From: Escherichia coli
Lineage (GTDB): Bacteria > Pseudomonadota > Gammaproteobacteria > Enterobacterales > Enterobacteriaceae
Assembly: GCF_029227855.1 (NCBI RefSeq)
Contig: NZ_CP074356.1
DNA: 64,000 bases
Strand: one strand, 5' to 3'
In this document: in pieces, positions 15,304 to 60,437 of the stretch
Position numbering within the stretch: the stretch's first letter is position 1
Layout: each line of letters opens with the position of its first letter
Notes under the pieces: model-generated
What the model was told of the DNA's origin: nothing
What the model saw: the letters and a program-made list of their open reading frames with translations, nothing else
Database searches by the model: none
Program-made: the position numbers and the translations under genes

Positions 15304-15508
15304 TGTGATGCGGCGTAGACTCATGTCTACGCCGTATTAATAGATAATGCCAATCAAAATAATTGCTACAAATTTGTAACTTTTGCTGTTGTACCTGTAC
15401 AATGTCCCAGTGTTCAAGTGGCCTTGCCGTTGTAAATGTAAGCAGTGCCACGTTTTTATTAACAATATTTGCCAGGGACTTGTGGTTTTCATTTAGGCGT
15501 GGCAATTC

Positions 15509-15527
15509 TATAATGATACGCATTATC
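15509..15527 (+). promoter_or_regulatory. Fur box in the fur promoter/leader
   Basis: tataatgatacgcattatc matches the 19-bp Fur consensus GATAATGATAATCATTATC at 16 of 19 positions. Confidence 0.7.
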
Positions 15528-15599
15528 TCAAGAGCAAATTCTGTCACTTCTCCTAATGAAGTGAACCGCTTAGTAACAGGACAGATTCCGCATGACTGA
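15513..15599 (+). CDS. uof: Uof, 28-codon leader peptide translationally coupled to fur
   Basis: ATG at 15513 to TGA at 15597-15599 (MIRIISRANSVTSPNEVNRLVTGQIPHD); overlaps the fur start by 8 nt. Confidence 0.75.
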   Translation: MIRIISRANSVTSPNEVNRLVTGQIPHD

Positions 15600-16038
15600 T
15601 AACAATACCGCCCTAAAGAAAGCTGGCCTGAAAGTAACACTTCCTCGCTTGAAAATCCTGGAAGTTCTTCAGGAGCCGGACAACCATCACGTCAGTGCGG
15701 AAGATTTATACAAACGTCTGATCGATATGGGTGAAGAAATTGGTCTGGCTACGGTATATCGCGTACTGAACCAGTTTGACGACGCTGGTATCGTCACCCG
15801 CCACAATTTTGAAGGCGGTAAATCCGTATTTGAACTGACACAGCAACATCACCACGATCACCTGATCTGCCTCGACTGCGGCAAGGTAATCGAATTTAGT
15901 GATGATTCCATCGAAGCGCGTCAGCGTGAAATTGCCGCAAAACATGGCATTCGCCTGACTAACCACAGTCTCTATCTTTACGGTCACTGTGCCGAAGGCG
16001 ATTGCCGCGAAGATGAGCACGCGCACGAAGGCAAATAA
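15592..16038 (+). CDS. fur: Ferric uptake regulator Fur (148 aa)
   Basis: ORF track 148 aa MTDNNTALKKAGLKVTLPRLKILEVLQEPDNHHVSAEDLY... identical in form to E. coli Fur. Confidence 0.97.
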   Translation: MTDNNTALKKAGLKVTLPRLKILEVLQEPDNHHVSAEDLYKRLIDMGEEIGLATVYRVLNQFDDAGIVTRHNFEGGKSVFELTQQHHHDHLICLDCGKVIEFSDDSIEARQREIAAKHGIRLTNHSLYLYGHCAEGDCREDEHAHEGK

Positions 16039-16056
16039 GCCAGCCGGAACGAGAAA

Positions 16057-16082
16057 AGCCAACCTGCGGGTTGGCTTTTTTA
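16057..16082 (+). terminator. fur intrinsic terminator
   Basis: Stem gccaacc / ggttggc with loop tgcg, followed by a T-run. Confidence 0.75.
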
Positions 16083-16094
16083 TACACGGGAAAT

Positions 16095-16812
16095 AATAAA
16101 TATCCTCCGGCATAGCCGGAGGTTTTTCAAATGCGCCTATAAGGCTCTCTTACCAGCCGCGCCCTAACAGGCGCACACGATCTGACATTTGCATCCAACT
16201 TCGTTACTTACGGCCCGTAAACGGGCTGCCCGGATAGGGAATCGATAACTGCTCTCCCATTTTATCCTCTTCAAGCTGGTGCTTTATGTAATCCTGTATC
16301 TTCGCCGTGTTCTTACCCACCGTATCGACGTAGTACCCTCTGCACCAGAACTCCCTGTTCCTGTATTTGAATTTCAAATCACCAAACTGCTCGTAAAGCA
16401 TCAGACTGCTTTTCCCTTTCAGATATCCCATAAAGCCGGATACGCTCATTTTGGGCGGGATCTCCACAAGCATATGGATATGATCTGCACAGCATTCAGC
16501 TTCCAGAATCCGTACACTTTTCCACTCACACAGCTTTCTCAAAATACTGCCTATTGCTCTACGCTTCTCTCTGTAGAACACCTGTCTTCGGTATTTTGGC
16601 GCAAAAACTATGTGATATTTACAGTTCCATCGGGTGTGCGCTAAGCTCTTTTCGTTCCCCATTGGGACCCCCTTTTGATTTCTTGTTTGACACTTGCAGT
16701 TGCCAGACCGCAAGGTGTTTTAACAAATCAAAAGGGGTTTTAATAACTGGCTTAAAGCTGAAAGCTTTCCGGAACCCCCAGCCTAGCTGGGGGTTTTCTG
16801 TGCACAAGAAAA
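16095..16812 (-). mobile_element. IS200: IS200 insertion sequence (about 0.71 kb; IS200/IS605 family), boundaries +/- 15 bp
   Basis: Contains the 152-aa HUH/Y1 transposase gene, a perfect subterminal palindrome cccccagc-cta-gctggggg (16775-16793) upstream of tnpA, and a second hairpin cctccggc-ata-gccggagg (16104-16122) near the other end. The fur-chiQ spacer is about 0.7 kb longer than I recall for K-12. Confidence 0.85.
16204..16662 (-). CDS. tnpA: IS200 transposase TnpA (152 aa)
   Basis: ORF 16204..16713; start at MGNEKSLAHTRWNCKYHIVFAPKYRR...; HUH motif HIHMLVEI and catalytic-Tyr region YYVDTVG. Confidence 0.92.
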   Translation of the reverse strand: MGNEKSLAHTRWNCKYHIVFAPKYRRQVFYREKRRAIGSILRKLCEWKSVRILEAECCADHIHMLVEIPPKMSVSGFMGYLKGKSSLMLYEQFGDLKFKYRNREFWCRGYYVDTVGKNTAKIQDYIKHQLEEDKMGEQLSIPYPGSPFTGRK

Positions 16813-16832
16813 GCGAGAGTTACAGCTCTCAC

Positions 16833-17159
16833 TTATTTGTTATTACTGCGAATTTCCTGCCAGACCTTATCACAGTCGGCTTTTACCGCCTGATCATTTC
16901 CGGTTTGCGTTGCGCGCAGACACTGCTGATAATCCAGTACGCGGACACTTTCCTGATCGGCAAACTGCTGATGTTGTTTCTCTTTCTTCAGCACGTTTAA
17001 CACGCTCTGGCAGGCTTCAATTTTTTCTGGCGAACCTTGTGCGGTGTTGATACAGGCGCTGTATGCCTCTTTCAGACGGCTGTCTTCCTGTGGCGCGGTT
17101 GATTGCGCACAAGCCACCAGCCCCGATGCCATCATGGCGATGAGAATCAGTTTTTTCAT
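16833..17159 (-). CDS. chiQ: Lipoprotein ChiQ (108 aa)
   Basis: ORF track 108 aa MKKLILIAMMASGLVACAQ...; downstream of chiP in the chiPQ operon. Confidence 0.9.
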   Translation of the reverse strand: MKKLILIAMMASGLVACAQSTAPQEDSRLKEAYSACINTAQGSPEKIEACQSVLNVLKKEKQHQQFADQESVRVLDYQQCLRATQTGNDQAVKADCDKVWQEIRSNNK

Positions 17160-29548: not shown

Positions 29549-29625
29549 GGCTACGTAGCTCAGTTGGTTAGAGCACATCACTCATAATGATGGGGTCACA
29601 GGTTCGAATCCCGTCGTAGCCACCA
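29549..29625 (+). tRNA. metT: tRNA-Met (CAU), elongator
   Basis: ggctacgtagctcagttggttagagcacatcactcataatgatggggtcacaggttcgaatcccgtcgtagccacca; cloverleaf with CAU anticodon and CCA end. Confidence 0.95.
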
Positions 29626-29633
29626 TCTTTTTT

Positions 29634-29718
29634 GCGGGAGTGGCGAAATTGGTAGACGCACCAGATTTAGGTTCTGGCGCCGCAAGGTGTGCGAGTTCAA
29701 GTCTCGCCTCCCGCACCA
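29634..29718 (+). tRNA. leuW: tRNA-Leu (UAG)
   Basis: gcgggagtggcgaaattggtagacgcaccagatttaggttctggcg...cccgcacca; long variable arm, anticodon UAG. Confidence 0.93.
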
Positions 29719-29741
29719 TTCACCAGAAAGCGTTGTACGGA

Positions 29742-29816
29742 TGGGGTATCGCCAAGCGGTAAGGCACCGGTTTTTGATACCGGCATTCCCTGGTTCGAAT
29801 CCAGGTACCCCAGCCA
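29742..29816 (+). tRNA. glnU: tRNA-Gln (UUG)
   Basis: tggggtatcgccaagcggtaaggcaccggtttttgataccggcattccctggttcgaatccaggtaccccagcca. Confidence 0.93.
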
Positions 29817-29850
29817 TCTTCTTCGAGTAAGCGGTTCACCGCCCGGTTAT

Positions 29851-29925
29851 TGGGGTATCGCCAAGCGGTAAGGCACCGGTTTTTGATACCGGCATTCCCT
29901 GGTTCGAATCCAGGTACCCCAGCCA
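29851..29925 (+). tRNA. glnW: tRNA-Gln (UUG), second copy
   Basis: Identical 75-nt sequence to glnU. Confidence 0.93.
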
Positions 29926-29940
29926 TCGAAGAAACAATCT

Positions 29941-30017
29941 GGCTACGTAGCTCAGTTGGTTAGAGCACATCACTCATAATGATGGGGTCACAGGTTCGAA
30001 TCCCGTCGTAGCCACCA
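29941..30017 (+). tRNA. metU: tRNA-Met (CAU), elongator, second copy
   Basis: Identical 77-nt sequence to metT. Confidence 0.95.
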
Positions 30018-30064
30018 AATTCTGAATGTGTCGAATATGTTCGGCAAATTCAAAAACCAATTTG

Positions 30065-30139
30065 TTGGGGTATCGCCAAGCGGTAAGGCACCGGATTCTG
30101 ATTCCGGCATTCCGAGGTTCGAATCCTCGTACCCCAGCC
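30065..30139 (+). tRNA. glnV: tRNA-Gln (CUG)
   Basis: tggggtatcgccaagcggtaaggcaccggattctgattccggcattccgaggttcgaatcctcgtaccccagcca. Confidence 0.93.
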
Positions 30140-30176
30140 AATTTATTCAAGACGCTGACCTTGTAAGTGCACCCAG

Positions 30177-30251
30177 TTGGGGTATCGCCAAGCGGTAAGG
30201 CACCGGATTCTGATTCCGGCATTCCGAGGTTCGAATCCTCGTACCCCAGCC
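30177..30251 (+). tRNA. glnX: tRNA-Gln (CUG), second copy
   Basis: Identical 75-nt sequence to glnV. Confidence 0.93.
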
Positions 30252-37735: not shown

Positions 37736-38644
37736 ATGCAATTACGTAAACCTGCCACAGCAATCCTCGCCCTGGCGCTTTCCGCAGGACTGGCACAGGC
37801 AGATGACGCCGTCCCGGCAGCAGGCAGTACGCTGGACAAAATCGCCAAAAACGGCGTGATTGTCGTCGGTCACCGTGAATCTTCAGTACCTTTCTCTTAT
37901 TACGACAATCAGCAAAAAGTGGTGGGTTACTCGCAGGATTACTCCAACGCCATTGTTGAAGCAGTGAAAAAGAAACTCAACAAACCGGACTTGCAGGTAA
38001 AACTGATTCCGATTACCTCACAAAACCGTATTCCACTGCTGCAAAACGGCACTTTCGATTTTGAATGTGGTTCTACCACCAACAACGTCGAACGCCAAAA
38101 ACAGGCGGCTTTCTCTGACACTATTTTCGTGGTCGGTACGCGCCTGCTGACCAAAAAGGGCGGCGATATCAAAGATTTCGCCGATCTGAAAGGTAAAGCC
38201 GTAGTCGTCACTTCCGGCACTACCTCTGAAGTTTTGCTCAACAAACTGAATGAAGAGCAAAAAATGAATATGCGAATTATCAGCGCCAAAGATCACGGTG
38301 ACTCTTTCCGCACCCTGGAAAGCGGTCGTGCCGTTGCCTTTATGATGGATGATGCTCTGCTGGCTGGTGAACGTGCGAAAGCGAAGAAACCAGACAACTG
38401 GGAAATCGTCGGCAAGCCGCAGTCTCAGGAAGCCTACGGTTGCATGTTGCGTAAAGACGATCCGCAGTTCAAAAAGCTGATGGATGACACTATCGCTCAG
38501 GTGCAGACCTCCGGTGAAGCGGAAAAATGGTTTGATAAATGGTTCAAAAACCCAATTCCGCCGAAAAACCTGAACATGAATTTCGAACTGTCAGACGAAA
38601 TGAAAGCACTGTTCAAAGAACCGAATGACAAGGCACTGAACTAA
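37736..38644 (+). CDS. gltI: Glutamate/aspartate ABC transporter periplasmic binding protein (302 aa)
   Basis: ORF 37661..38644; start at MQLRKPATAILALALSAGLAQA (signal peptide) with RBS aaggag. Confidence 0.95.
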   Translation: MQLRKPATAILALALSAGLAQADDAVPAAGSTLDKIAKNGVIVVGHRESSVPFSYYDNQQKVVGYSQDYSNAIVEAVKKKLNKPDLQVKLIPITSQNRIPLLQNGTFDFECGSTTNNVERQKQAAFSDTIFVVGTRLLTKKGGDIKDFADLKGKAVVVTSGTTSEVLLNKLNEEQKMNMRIISAKDHGDSFRTLESGRAVAFMMDDALLAGERAKAKKPDNWEIVGKPQSQEAYGCMLRKDDPQFKKLMDDTIAQVQTSGEAEKWFDKWFKNPIPPKNLNMNFELSDEMKALFKEPNDKALN

Positions 38645-38800
38645 TTACAAGAACCAGGGGCGGAAATTCCAGCCCTCTCGATTGTTACGTAGCACGGACA
38701 GACTATACGCCTGATGGTCGTTCCCCATCGGGCCTGAAAACCGCAATACGCTGGGTAACAATCTTCGAGGGTAGCAGTTAACGCTGCTACCCTCTTTTTT
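38640..38800 (+). ncRNA. sroC: SroC small RNA, processed from the gltIJKL transcript (GcvB sponge); ends approximate
   Basis: About 160-nt gltI-gltJ spacer ending in an intrinsic terminator gagggtagcag-ttaacg-ctgctaccctc-tttttt at 38767-38800; this is where I recall sroC lying. Confidence 0.6.
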
Positions 38801-38813
38801 CTGGAGTAGATTT

Positions 38814-41070: not shown

Positions 41071-42006
41071 ATGGCACTGCCAATTCTGTTAGATTGCGAC
41101 CCAGGTCATGACGACGCTATCGCAATAGTTCTTGCCCTCGCCTCACCAGAGCTTGATATCAAAGCAATTACGTCTTCCGCCGGAAACCAGACTCCAGAAA
41201 AAACCTTACGCAATGTTCTGCGTATGCTGACCTTGCTTAATCGCACCGATATTCCGGTGGCAGGCGGCGCGGTAAAACCGTTAATGCGTGAGTTGATTAT
41301 CGCGGACAATGTGCACGGTGAAAGCGGTCTCGACGGCCCGGCATTACCGGAACCGACGTTCGCACCGCAAAACTGTACGGCGGTAGAGCTGATGGCGAAA
41401 ACGCTGCGTGAAAGTGCGGAACCTGTCACGATTGTTTCTACCGGGCCGCAAACTAACGTTGCCTTGCTGCTCAATAGCCATCCGGAACTGCATAGCAAAA
41501 TTGCCCGTATCGTGATTATGGGCGGCGCAATGGGGCTTGGTAACTGGACGCCTGCGGCTGAATTTAATATTTACGTTGACCCGGAAGCGGCAGAAATTGT
41601 CTTCCAGTCAAGGATCCCGGTGGTGATGGCCGGTCTGGATGTTACTCATAAAGCGCAAATCCACGTTGAAGACACCGAGCGTTTCCGCGCGATTGGCAAC
41701 CCTGTTTCAACCATTGTTGCCGAACTGCTGGATTTCTTCCTCGAATATCATAAAGACGAAAAATGGGGCTTTGTCGGCGCACCGCTGCATGACCCATGCA
41801 CCATCGCCTGGCTGTTAAAACCGGAGTTGTTTACCACTGTTGAGCGCTGGGTTGGCGTGGAAACACAAGGGAAATATACCCAGGGTATGACGGTTGTTGA
41901 TTATTATTATCTGACCGGCAATAAACCGAATGCCTCTGTAATGGTCGATGTTGATCGTCAGGGCTTTGTTGATTTACTGGCTGATCGTCTGAAATTTTAC
42001 GCTTAA
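41071..42006 (+). CDS. rihA: Pyrimidine-specific ribonucleoside hydrolase RihA (311 aa)
   Basis: ORF 41038..42006; start at [22 protein letters not shown] (DxDxxxDD nucleoside hydrolase motif) with RBS aggag. Confidence 0.93.
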
Positions 42007-60004: not shown

Positions 60005-60036
60005 CAAAAAAAACCCGCTGATTAAGCGGGTTTTGA
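60005..60036. terminator. Bidirectional terminator between convergent crcB and cspE
   Basis: aaaaaaaacccgct-gattaa-gcgggtttt. Confidence 0.75.
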
Positions 60037-60053
60037 ATTCTTGCTGACGTATC

Positions 60054-60263
60054 TTACAGAGCGATTACGTTTGCAGCAGAAGGGCCTTTGGCACCGTTAG
60101 TGATTTCGAACTCTACGCGCTGACCTTCAGCAAGAGTTTTAAAACCATTAGTCTGGATTGCAGAGAAGTGTACAAACACGTCTTTGCTGCCGTCTTCCGG
60201 AGTAATGAAACCGAATCCTTTGGACTCATTAAACCACTTAACGTTACCTTTAATCTTAGACAT
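60054..60263 (-). CDS. cspE: Cold-shock-domain protein CspE (69 aa)
   Basis: ORF 60054..60347; start at [37 protein letters not shown]... (RNP1/RNP2 motifs). Confidence 0.96.
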
Positions 60264-60437
60264 CAAAATTACCTTTACATGAAAAATAGACACAAATGCT
60301 GTGTCGGTTACCAGTACACCAATTGTGGTACGCTTTGTCCAGTGCAACTTTACTAAAAAGTGATAAAAGTCGCGTTATTTTTGATGTTAATTATTTTACC
60401 CATTGATTTTAAAGAGTTTACTAAAATTTCATTTGTC

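Follow-up and report, generated by a model that had tools for sequence, protein, structure and literature searches.

In Escherichia coli K-12, the gene fur follows uof, which is counted among the leader peptides in EcoCyc (PMC7815308). According to PMC6191717, PMC11448259 and PMC11550727, Vecerek et al. 2007 described the translational coupling of uof and fur in K-12, with uof being translated and fur translation depending on it. RyhB nucleotides G44/C45 were needed for repression of both uof and fur in K-12, as stated in PMC6191717, and the uof UCA codon needs a MiaB-modified tRNA, as attributed to Vecerek 2007 in PMC11448259. In independent benchmarking, the published model of the RyhB-uof pairing was not recoverable by any prediction method (PMC3018821). 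At the level of transcription, a transcriptome study reported that ybfE-fldA-uof-fur is fed by three promoters (PMC4161252). Both starts of fur transcription in E. coli, a and b, have been placed within the uof ORF, with the Fur box on the -10 of Pfur-a and a separate uof start upstream (PMC7867234); Pfur is also described as "located within the uof ORF", with Puof upstream (PMC6191717).

In this study, we analyzed the corresponding region in an E. coli window (the whole stretch of DNA under analysis, 64,000 nucleotides; all positions are counted within it), starting from a preliminary description of a Fur box and of a coupled uof-fur pair. The K-12 work behind Fe(II)-Fur binding of the fur box is reportedly that of de Lorenzo in 1988, and the OxyR-dependent upstream fur/uof promoter is said to go back to Zheng et al. 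in 1999.

Results

Comparison of the locus with K-12

The gene order around the feature was ybfF, ybfE, fldA, a 292-bp spacer, fur and IS200, with chiQ and chiP on the opposite strand. An 821-nt query over the region had matches in 5,424 of 5,426 complete E. coli genomes, with at least 99% identity in 251 of them, and the annotation "uof: fur leader peptide" stood under the query match in all 15 matches listed for it, and in all 21 of the matches listed for the locus overall. In the nearest genome, JNEC-KY178 (99.9% identity), the uof CDS annotated in RefSeq corresponds exactly to window positions 15513-15599, and in K-12 MG1655 the same ORF is b4637, the "RyhB-regulated fur leader peptide" (RefSeq). 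Judged by its sequence, the region is the E. coli fldA-uof-fur locus, an ordinary and intact fur control region. Such a region is already described and annotated, and it is no discovery here.

We then compared the 292-bp fldA-fur spacer with that of K-12 MG1655 and found three substitutions, at 15410, 15445 and 15552, the first two of which lie upstream of the Fur box. The differences from K-12 spared the Fur box, both promoter-like sites, the uof start and stop, the UCA at codon 6, the GAGCAA motif and the fur start junction. The fur gene (15592-16038, + strand, 148 aa; Pfam FUR, E = 1e-49) carried six synonymous changes, and its protein was identical to K-12 Fur. The preliminary description had recognized the known arrangement for Fur autoregulation and RyhB control and had called it intact; the near-identity to K-12 and the RefSeq annotation of uof bear this out. 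The support for intactness and mechanism is sequence identity to K-12, where the mechanism was tested. A canonical, intact fur control region, with its proposed regulation at the DNA and RNA levels, is therefore in our view very probably the best explanation of the locus.

The Fur box and two promoter-like sites

To score the Fur box, we used the consensus with mismatches, shuffled sequences and the ryhB promoter as a positive control. The box TATAATGATACGCATTATC (15509-15527, + strand), identical in K-12, matched the 19-bp consensus GATAATGATAATCATTATC, which consists of three GATAAT-type hexamers, at 16 of 19 positions; its hexamers TATAAT, GATACG and inverted GATAAT matched at 5/6, 4/6 and 6/6 positions, respectively. 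It was the sole site with three or fewer mismatches on both strands of the 64-kb window, and none of 100 dinucleotide shuffles contained any such match. The best match in the K-12 ryhB promoter also reached 16/19. The box is clearly beyond chance expectation, and the 16/19 match given in the preliminary description was confirmed. The start of the feature had been placed at 15506, which is 3 nt too early, whereas the overlap of the box with the uof ATG was correct. The full tally of the window comprised one 16/19 site and two 15/19 sites. One of the latter is the same box (15509-15527) read on the other strand, and the other, at 41893-41911, was dismissed as chance since it lies within a 322-aa ORF. 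Because the sequence is identical, binding of Fe(II)-Fur at the box would carry over from the K-12 work.

A consensus scan identified a proximal fur promoter-like site, TTTTCA-17-TATAAT, at 15486-15514 (+ strand, 10/12 matches). Its predicted start, at about 15521, lies inside uof and 3' of the uof ATG. The Fur box covers the -10 hexamer TATAAT of this site, and the uof ATG consists of the last two bases of that hexamer and the next G, which means that only transcripts started farther upstream can carry the uof ATG. The same scan revealed a distal promoter-like site, TTGTAA-18-TACAAT, at 15374-15403 (+ strand), with a predicted start at about 15410. The pattern GTTTTCATTT...TATAATGA of the proximal site was nearly invariant over Enterobacterales, with a variable spacer in between, while both hexamers of the distal site and a block just 5' of it were conserved across Enterobacteriaceae, again with a variable spacer. 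Constant hexamers with a variable spacer indicate promoter-like conservation. The distal site is probably the upstream OxyR-dependent "Puof" promoter, whose transcript contains the uof AUG, a reading based on PMC7867234 and on the promoter reportedly described by Zheng et al. 1999.

An overlap with the -10 of the proximal fur promoter is the best reading of the Fur box, with the uof ATG falling within it by geometry. The overlap between the Fur box and the uof start is thus a matter of geometry, without a functional link. Since fur transcription starts inside uof (PMC7867234, PMC6191717), the class of transcripts affected by Fur binding is not the one on which uof translation acts.

Another explanation is that the Fur box works chiefly on the long transcripts, those from the distal promoter and fldA, as a roadblock or operator, a mode of action that would link Fur directly to the mRNAs that carry uof. 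All long transcripts do include the box, which is about 100 bp downstream of the predicted distal start, and a second, weaker Fur-box-like site (14/19) at 15343-15361 adjoins the distal promoter. However, the center of the box falls on a near-consensus -10 whose -35, 17 bp away, is conserved, and the literature places it on the -10 of Pfur-a (PMC7867234). We consider the roadblock unlikely and retain the reading of the box as overlapping the proximal fur promoter.

Roadblock and occlusion of the proximal -10 are not mutually exclusive.

The uof frame, the fur start and the leader hairpin

The uof leader ORF (15513-15599, + strand; annotated as uof in RefSeq) begins with the ATG at 15513-15515, continues through 28 sense codons (MIRIISRANSVTSPNEVNRLVTGQIPHD) and ends with the TGA at 15597-15599. 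The fur ATG is located at 15592-15594, and the two frames share 8 nt (15592-15599). The preliminary description had given a 28-codon uof with its ATG in the Fur box and its stop overlapping the fur ATG by 8 nt, and the coordinates (15513-15599 against 15592) agree with this in every part. Compared with K-12, 86 of 87 nt were identical, the only change being TCT to CCT at 15552, which turns codon 14 from Ser into Pro. A species-representative E. coli has Phe at this codon; with Ser in K-12 and Pro in this strain, uof codon 14 is polymorphic within the species. The 59-nt stretch of uof codons 4-24 was identical in 393 of 5,424 E. coli genomes, and the rest differed at one or more positions.

The 8-nt overlap is no independent evidence, because the fur start ATGACTGA has TGA in both alternative frames (fur codons 2-3), so that whichever upstream frame is open reaches its stop on the fur start. 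The open 26-codon stretch alone is unremarkable. When the variable middle of related leaders was shuffled, a coupled ORF was retained in about one quarter of the shuffles.

When we ran the check on the ribosome-binding context of uof that the preliminary description had named, the result was weak and did not separate uof from background: the best anti-Shine-Dalgarno hybrid was -3.6 kcal/mol at a spacing of 9 nt, which 27% of random window positions equaled. For comparison, the hybrids were -4.0 kcal/mol for fur and -6.5 kcal/mol for fldA.

MFE folds predicted a weak stem, UUAGU/ACUGA with inner GGA/UCC, at 15570-15599 (+ strand), which encloses the fur Shine-Dalgarno-like AGGA and the AUG and has the uof stop in its 3' arm. 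RNAalifold on 38 leaders showed no covariation in this stem, because its 3' arm is fixed by fur coding. The stem around the fur start may play a role in coupling.

A predicted leader hairpin, UCACUUC-UCCUAAU-GAAGUGA (15544-15564, + strand; MFE -8.7 kcal/mol, z = -2.65), was located within uof codons 11-18, and the base changed in Ser14Pro lies in its 7-nt loop. In per-sequence folds, most other leaders had a hairpin at an equal distance from the fur ATG with different stems, namely ACUUCC/GGAAGU, CGCUCA/UGAGCG, GCUCC/GGAGC, GCCC/GGGC or UCCCC/GGGGA. The four core columns of the 3' arm were paired in the leader's own MFE fold in 63-75% of 88 distinct leaders, with 4-6 pair types per column, counts that were taken from folds of the individual sequences, with the distance to the fur ATG as the anchor, and that lean towards structure. 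Such predicted pairings are suggestive of covariation. RNAalifold on a MAFFT alignment of the 38 leaders returned only invariant GGA/UCC pairs and missed the hairpin, since differences in loop length misalign its 5' arm. With single-nucleotide indels in the loop, the hairpin persists and the uof frame is lost, Salmonella arizonae being an example.

Conservation of the leader across Enterobacterales

Using a degenerate pattern for the Fur N-terminus, we collected 120 loci from species-representative genomes, of which 112 had enough upstream sequence. The results showed that, across these 112 Enterobacterales loci, both promoters and the leader hairpin were conserved more widely than the uof frame. 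GTTTTCATTT, an 11-nt spacer and TATAATGA(G/T)ACGCA were kept from Escherichia to Serratia, Pantoea and Edwardsiella. A uof-type ORF of 28-29 codons ending in ATGACTGA was found in Escherichia, several Citrobacter, Enterobacter, Leclercia, Kosakonia, Phytobacter, Kluyvera, Pluralibacter and others. In Cedecea and Mangrovibacter, an ORF of 23-26 codons in another frame ended at ATGA on the fur start. The ORF ended after 16 codons, 30 nt ahead of fur, in Salmonella arizonae, Citrobacter sedlakii and C. amalonaticus, while the ORF starting at TATAATG had 14 codons in Klebsiella oxytoca and Raoultella and 4 codons in Serratia and Pantoea. In Buttiauxella, it ran in frame with fur without a stop. 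Variable columns in the 28-codon group were distributed as 11, 10 and 11 over the three codon positions, and the uof peptide is under no visible selection. This even variation fits a model in which the act of translation matters.

These data bear on the explanation that uof is an incidental open frame, with its ATG supplied by the TATAATG of the promoter and Fur box, its stop supplied by ATGACTGA and its middle open by chance. Several observations point in that direction: the conservation of TATAATGA(G/T)ACGCA reaches well past the taxa in which the ORF is retained, the Shine-Dalgarno context is weak, substitutions show no codon-position pattern, about 25% of shuffled leaders stay open, and the ORF has only 4-20 codons in many genera, with Y. 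enterocolitica reported to lack uof altogether (PMC7867234). Against it stand the K-12 experiments, which, as reported in PMC6191717 and PMC11448259, concern a sequence identical in the start region. In addition, a coupled ORF was present in 29 of 72 distinct leaders versus 18.1 expected from shuffling the variable middle, a modest enrichment among leaders that are not phylogenetically independent. The frame also survives 3-nt length changes (28 versus 29 codons), and the Cedecea and Mangrovibacter ORF, in its other frame, still ends on the fur start at ATGA. Taken together, an incidental origin of uof in this strain appears very improbable, and we keep to the reading of uof as part of a canonical fur control region.

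Predicted pairing with RyhB and the UCA codon

The longest exact complement to RyhB in the leader was the 6-nt GAGCAA at 15532-15537 (+ strand), identical in K-12, which pairs with RyhB nt 42-47 (UUGCUC), G44/C45 included. ryhB was absent from the 64-kb window, and the K-12 RyhB sequence was used. RNA duplex prediction on long sequences gave an unrealistic 180-nt interaction; windowed duplex scans with background controls were used instead. The best duplex over 15489-15545 was -24.9 kcal/mol with full RyhB and -16.6 kcal/mol with its single-stranded core. The preliminary description had named the pairing of RyhB with the uof region as a check, and on this count the energy did not stand out from background: with full RyhB, 71% of random 57-nt windows paired as well, with the core 46% did, and so did 12% of shuffles. 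Stronger duplexes were predicted at 15646-15677, inside fur, and at 15428-15459, upstream. Codon 6 of uof (15528-15530, + strand) is UCA (Ser), the codon reported in PMC11448259 to need a MiaB-modified tRNA.

The failed pairing energy weakens prediction as a test and leaves the experimental claim as strong as it was. Both the Shine-Dalgarno test and the RyhB-pairing test are uninformative here, as they would "refute" a mechanism established on the same sequence in K-12.

The fur terminator and the IS200 insertion

The intrinsic terminator of fur (AAAAGCCAACC...GGTTGGCTTTT and a T-run; 16052-16084, + strand) was identified by folding 16039-16096 (-24.8 kcal/mol). Its stem-loop (16052-16081) was intact and identical in K-12, and the only nearby differences from K-12 lay outside it: one (16046) precedes the stem, and two (16085 and 16088) follow the T-run. 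The consensus scan missed this terminator, and a stem extension absorbing the T-run is the suspected reason.

Empty-site comparison with two genomes (K-12 and JNEC-KY178) delimited a 711-bp IS200 copy (IS200C-type) at 16097-16807 on the - strand, with a 2-nt "AA" ambiguity at the junctions. It begins 58 nt past the last base of the fur stop codon (16038) and 11-13 nt past the terminator; the preliminary description, which had put it about 60 bp past the fur stop and beyond the terminator, was right, the terminator standing intact between the two. The element contains tnpA (16204-16662, - strand), encoding a 152-aa Y1 transposase (Pfam Y1_Tnp, E = 4e-38), a 5' leader with the left end (16672-16807, - strand; Rfam STnc490, 146 bits) and a GC-rich right-end hairpin at 16104-16122 with a T-run on the + strand. 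The size of about 0.7 kb, the single Y1 transposase gene and the structured 5' leader are those of IS200 (IS200/IS605 family), and a copy in strain PCN033 agrees with it at every one of the 711 positions except 2. The insertion lies in the T-tract of a terminator-like hairpin of the convergent chiP-chiQ operon (16811-16834, - strand; consensus scan and empty-site sequence), between the convergent fur and chiQ terminators. Not one of 5,426 complete E. coli genomes covered 80% or more of a 121-nt query over the fur-IS200 junction, indicating that the insertion is strain- or lineage-specific.

Similarity of the 20-nt flanks at other IS200 copies was set aside, as it came down to one shared locus and AT-rich ends, and only the terminal AATAAATATCC... 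was common to all.

That IS200 alters fur 3'-end formation or drives antisense transcription into fur, leaving the arrangement not intact, finds some encouragement in the unique junction and in a tnpA that points towards fur but is very improbable, since the fur terminator is unchanged and A/T-flanked on both sides, so that it could stop transcription either way, the right-end hairpin is GC-rich with a T-run on the + strand, and IS200 tnpA is generally poorly expressed. The IS200 copy is most likely without effect on fur, and both this unique insertion and the Ser14Pro change in the hairpin loop are probably neutral.

Discussion

The proposed mechanism of a canonical fur control region has two levels. 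At the DNA level, iron-loaded Fur would bind the box at 15509-15527, cover the proximal -10 TATAAT and repress its own transcription. At the RNA level, longer transcripts, arising from the distal promoter (15374-15403) and from fldA/ybfE read-through, would carry the uof AUG at 15513. Ribosomes translating the 28 uof codons would terminate at the UGA within fur codons 2-3, where they may open the weakly structured fur ribosome-binding region or reinitiate, and Fur synthesis would thereby depend on uof translation. Under low iron, the Fur-repressed RyhB would pair imperfectly over the uof start region, with GAGCAA facing G44/C45, and less Fur would be made. Low iron may also leave the iron-sulfur enzyme MiaB inactive, in which case the UCA at codon 6 would be poorly read and Fur would again decrease. 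Fur binding, uof translation, coupling and the effects of RyhB and MiaB are taken from the literature and would apply here through sequence identity, and we infer which promoter feeds uof.

The comparison across Enterobacterales suggests an evolutionary reading, to which we give somewhat less than an even chance. In this reading, uof would be a lineage-restricted, frame-flexible addition, and deep conservation in fur control would lie with both promoters, with the Fur box over the proximal -10, with the compensated leader hairpin and with the fur start region. The uof frame would be +2, ending in ATGACTGA, in Escherichia, Citrobacter, Enterobacter and Kluyvera, and +1, ending in ATGA, in Cedecea and Mangrovibacter; uof would have been shortened by 1-nt loop indels in Salmonella arizonae and would also be shortened in Klebsiella. 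If uof is lineage-restricted in this way, control by RyhB and MiaB through uof would have been added recently, and the older, uncharacterized element would be the hairpin. A conserved leader hairpin together with a frame-flexible or shortened uof in other genera may modestly interest researchers working on Fur outside E. coli.

For the strain itself, the results mean that it carries the textbook fur autoregulation and RyhB-uof circuit unchanged, which has small weight as a discovery. The locus also has some value for calibration. A validated sRNA target and leader ORF can fail in silico tests of pairing energy and of Shine-Dalgarno context, and such tests should therefore not be used to refute similar findings. 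In addition, the first codons of a downstream gene can by themselves impose an "overlapping stop", and a start codon can be conserved through lying inside a promoter element.

Among known systems, the closest is uof-fur of E. coli K-12 (b4637/b0683), with which the Fur box, the promoter-like sites, the uof start, the UCA at codon 6, GAGCAA, the stop/start overlap and the Fur protein are all identical. Unlike K-12, this strain has Ser14Pro in uof (15552), the changes at 15410 and 15445, six synonymous changes in fur and the downstream IS200. The leaders of other Enterobacterales, such as Salmonella arizonae, Klebsiella, Serratia and Pantoea, share with it the proximal -35/-10 with TATAATGA, the distal promoter, a hairpin whose distance from fur is fixed and an ACAGGAC...CCGCATGACTGA that does not vary. 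Their TATAATG ORF, in contrast, either terminates 18-75 nt ahead of fur, after 4-20 codons, or continues in frame into fur, and the 8-nt overlap is absent.

The Fur box resembles other boxes of the E. coli Fur regulon, such as that of the ryhB promoter, in that both follow the same 19-bp consensus, score 16/19 and overlap core promoter elements. Unlike the ryhB-promoter box, the fur box serves autoregulation of the gene for Fur itself, and from its -10 hexamer longer transcripts also obtain the start codon of an upstream ORF. The uof-fur junction is similar to classical stop/start coupling (ATGA and TGATG junctions), with the upstream stop within the downstream start region and a weak downstream ribosome-binding site. 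It differs from classical overlap coupling in that uof is a 28-codon leader with an unconserved peptide, and in that its inputs are an sRNA and a tRNA modification.

Termination of upstream reading frames at the fur start

At its start (15592-15599, ATGACTGA), fur carries a TGA in each of the two alternative frames, indicating that any upstream ORF left open in either of them terminates across the fur ATG. In Enterobacter asburiae (locus L025), fur codon 2 is ACA and the TGA is absent, and the ORF extends 49 codons into fur.

We compared the fate of the ORF initiated at TATAATG among fur loci of species-representative Enterobacterales genomes (L070, L085, L095, L058, L099, L030, and L111, among others). 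The results showed that this ORF ended upstream of fur after 16 codons in Salmonella arizonae, Citrobacter sedlakii, and C. amalonaticus, after 14 codons in Klebsiella and Raoultella, and after 4 codons in Serratia and Pantoea. In Cedecea and Mangrovibacter, it lay in the other frame and terminated at ATGA, and in Buttiauxella, Dryocola, and Cedecea colo it continued into fur in frame.

A predicted leader hairpin within uof

A hairpin is predicted inside uof, the fur leader ORF, at 15544-15564. Across the Enterobacterales leaders (loci L005-L123), the hairpin held a constant position relative to the fur ATG (-48 to -28), with diverse stem sequences; this variation resembles compensatory change. 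In related fur loci, 1-nt loop indels broke the uof frame and the hairpin was retained. Base 15552, in uof codon 14, is located in the loop; this codon reads CCT (Pro) in the window, compared with TCT (Ser) in K-12 and, in a further E. coli, TTT (Phe). A 59-nt segment around it (15524-15582) matched the window exactly in 393 of 5,424 complete genomes.

Other elements in the window

An IS200C-type element occupies 16097-16807; its insertion point is the T-tract that separates the convergent fur and chiQ terminators. A search of 5,426 complete E. coli genomes found its fur-side junction in none of them; many genomes have 10-20 IS200 copies elsewhere. At the Rfam gathering threshold, matches elsewhere in the window were sroC (38640-38802), a cspA-type thermoregulator leader (60006-60364), and seven clustered tRNA genes (29549-30249). 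A Fur-box-like palindrome (15/19) at 41893-41911 was judged a chance match; it sits within a 322-aa ORF, where it encodes VVDYYYL.

Fur box RNA, predicted RyhB pairing, and the distal promoter-like site

When transcribed as part of a long mRNA, the palindromic Fur box (15509-15527) is predicted to be able to form a small A/U-rich hairpin, AUAAUG/CAUUAU, containing the uof AUG. This structure may be relevant to the weak ribosome-binding context of uof and to RyhB/Hfq action. Predicted RyhB duplexes at 15646-15677 and 15428-15459 (-21 and -18.6 kcal/mol) surpassed in strength the duplex at the published uof site, and in one of them RyhB nt 55-61 pair with CUGGAAG near the beginning of the fur coding sequence; given the background distribution, both are probably due to chance.

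Further upstream, the distal promoter-like site, TTGTAA-18-TACAAT, and the block directly 5' of it, ATAG..AATAATTGCTACAAATTTGTAAC, together span 15344-15403 and are conserved throughout the Enterobacteriaceae. A Fur-box-like site (14/19) at 15343-15361 overlaps the block. The TTGTAA-18-TACAAT site is probably the OxyR-dependent/uof promoter.
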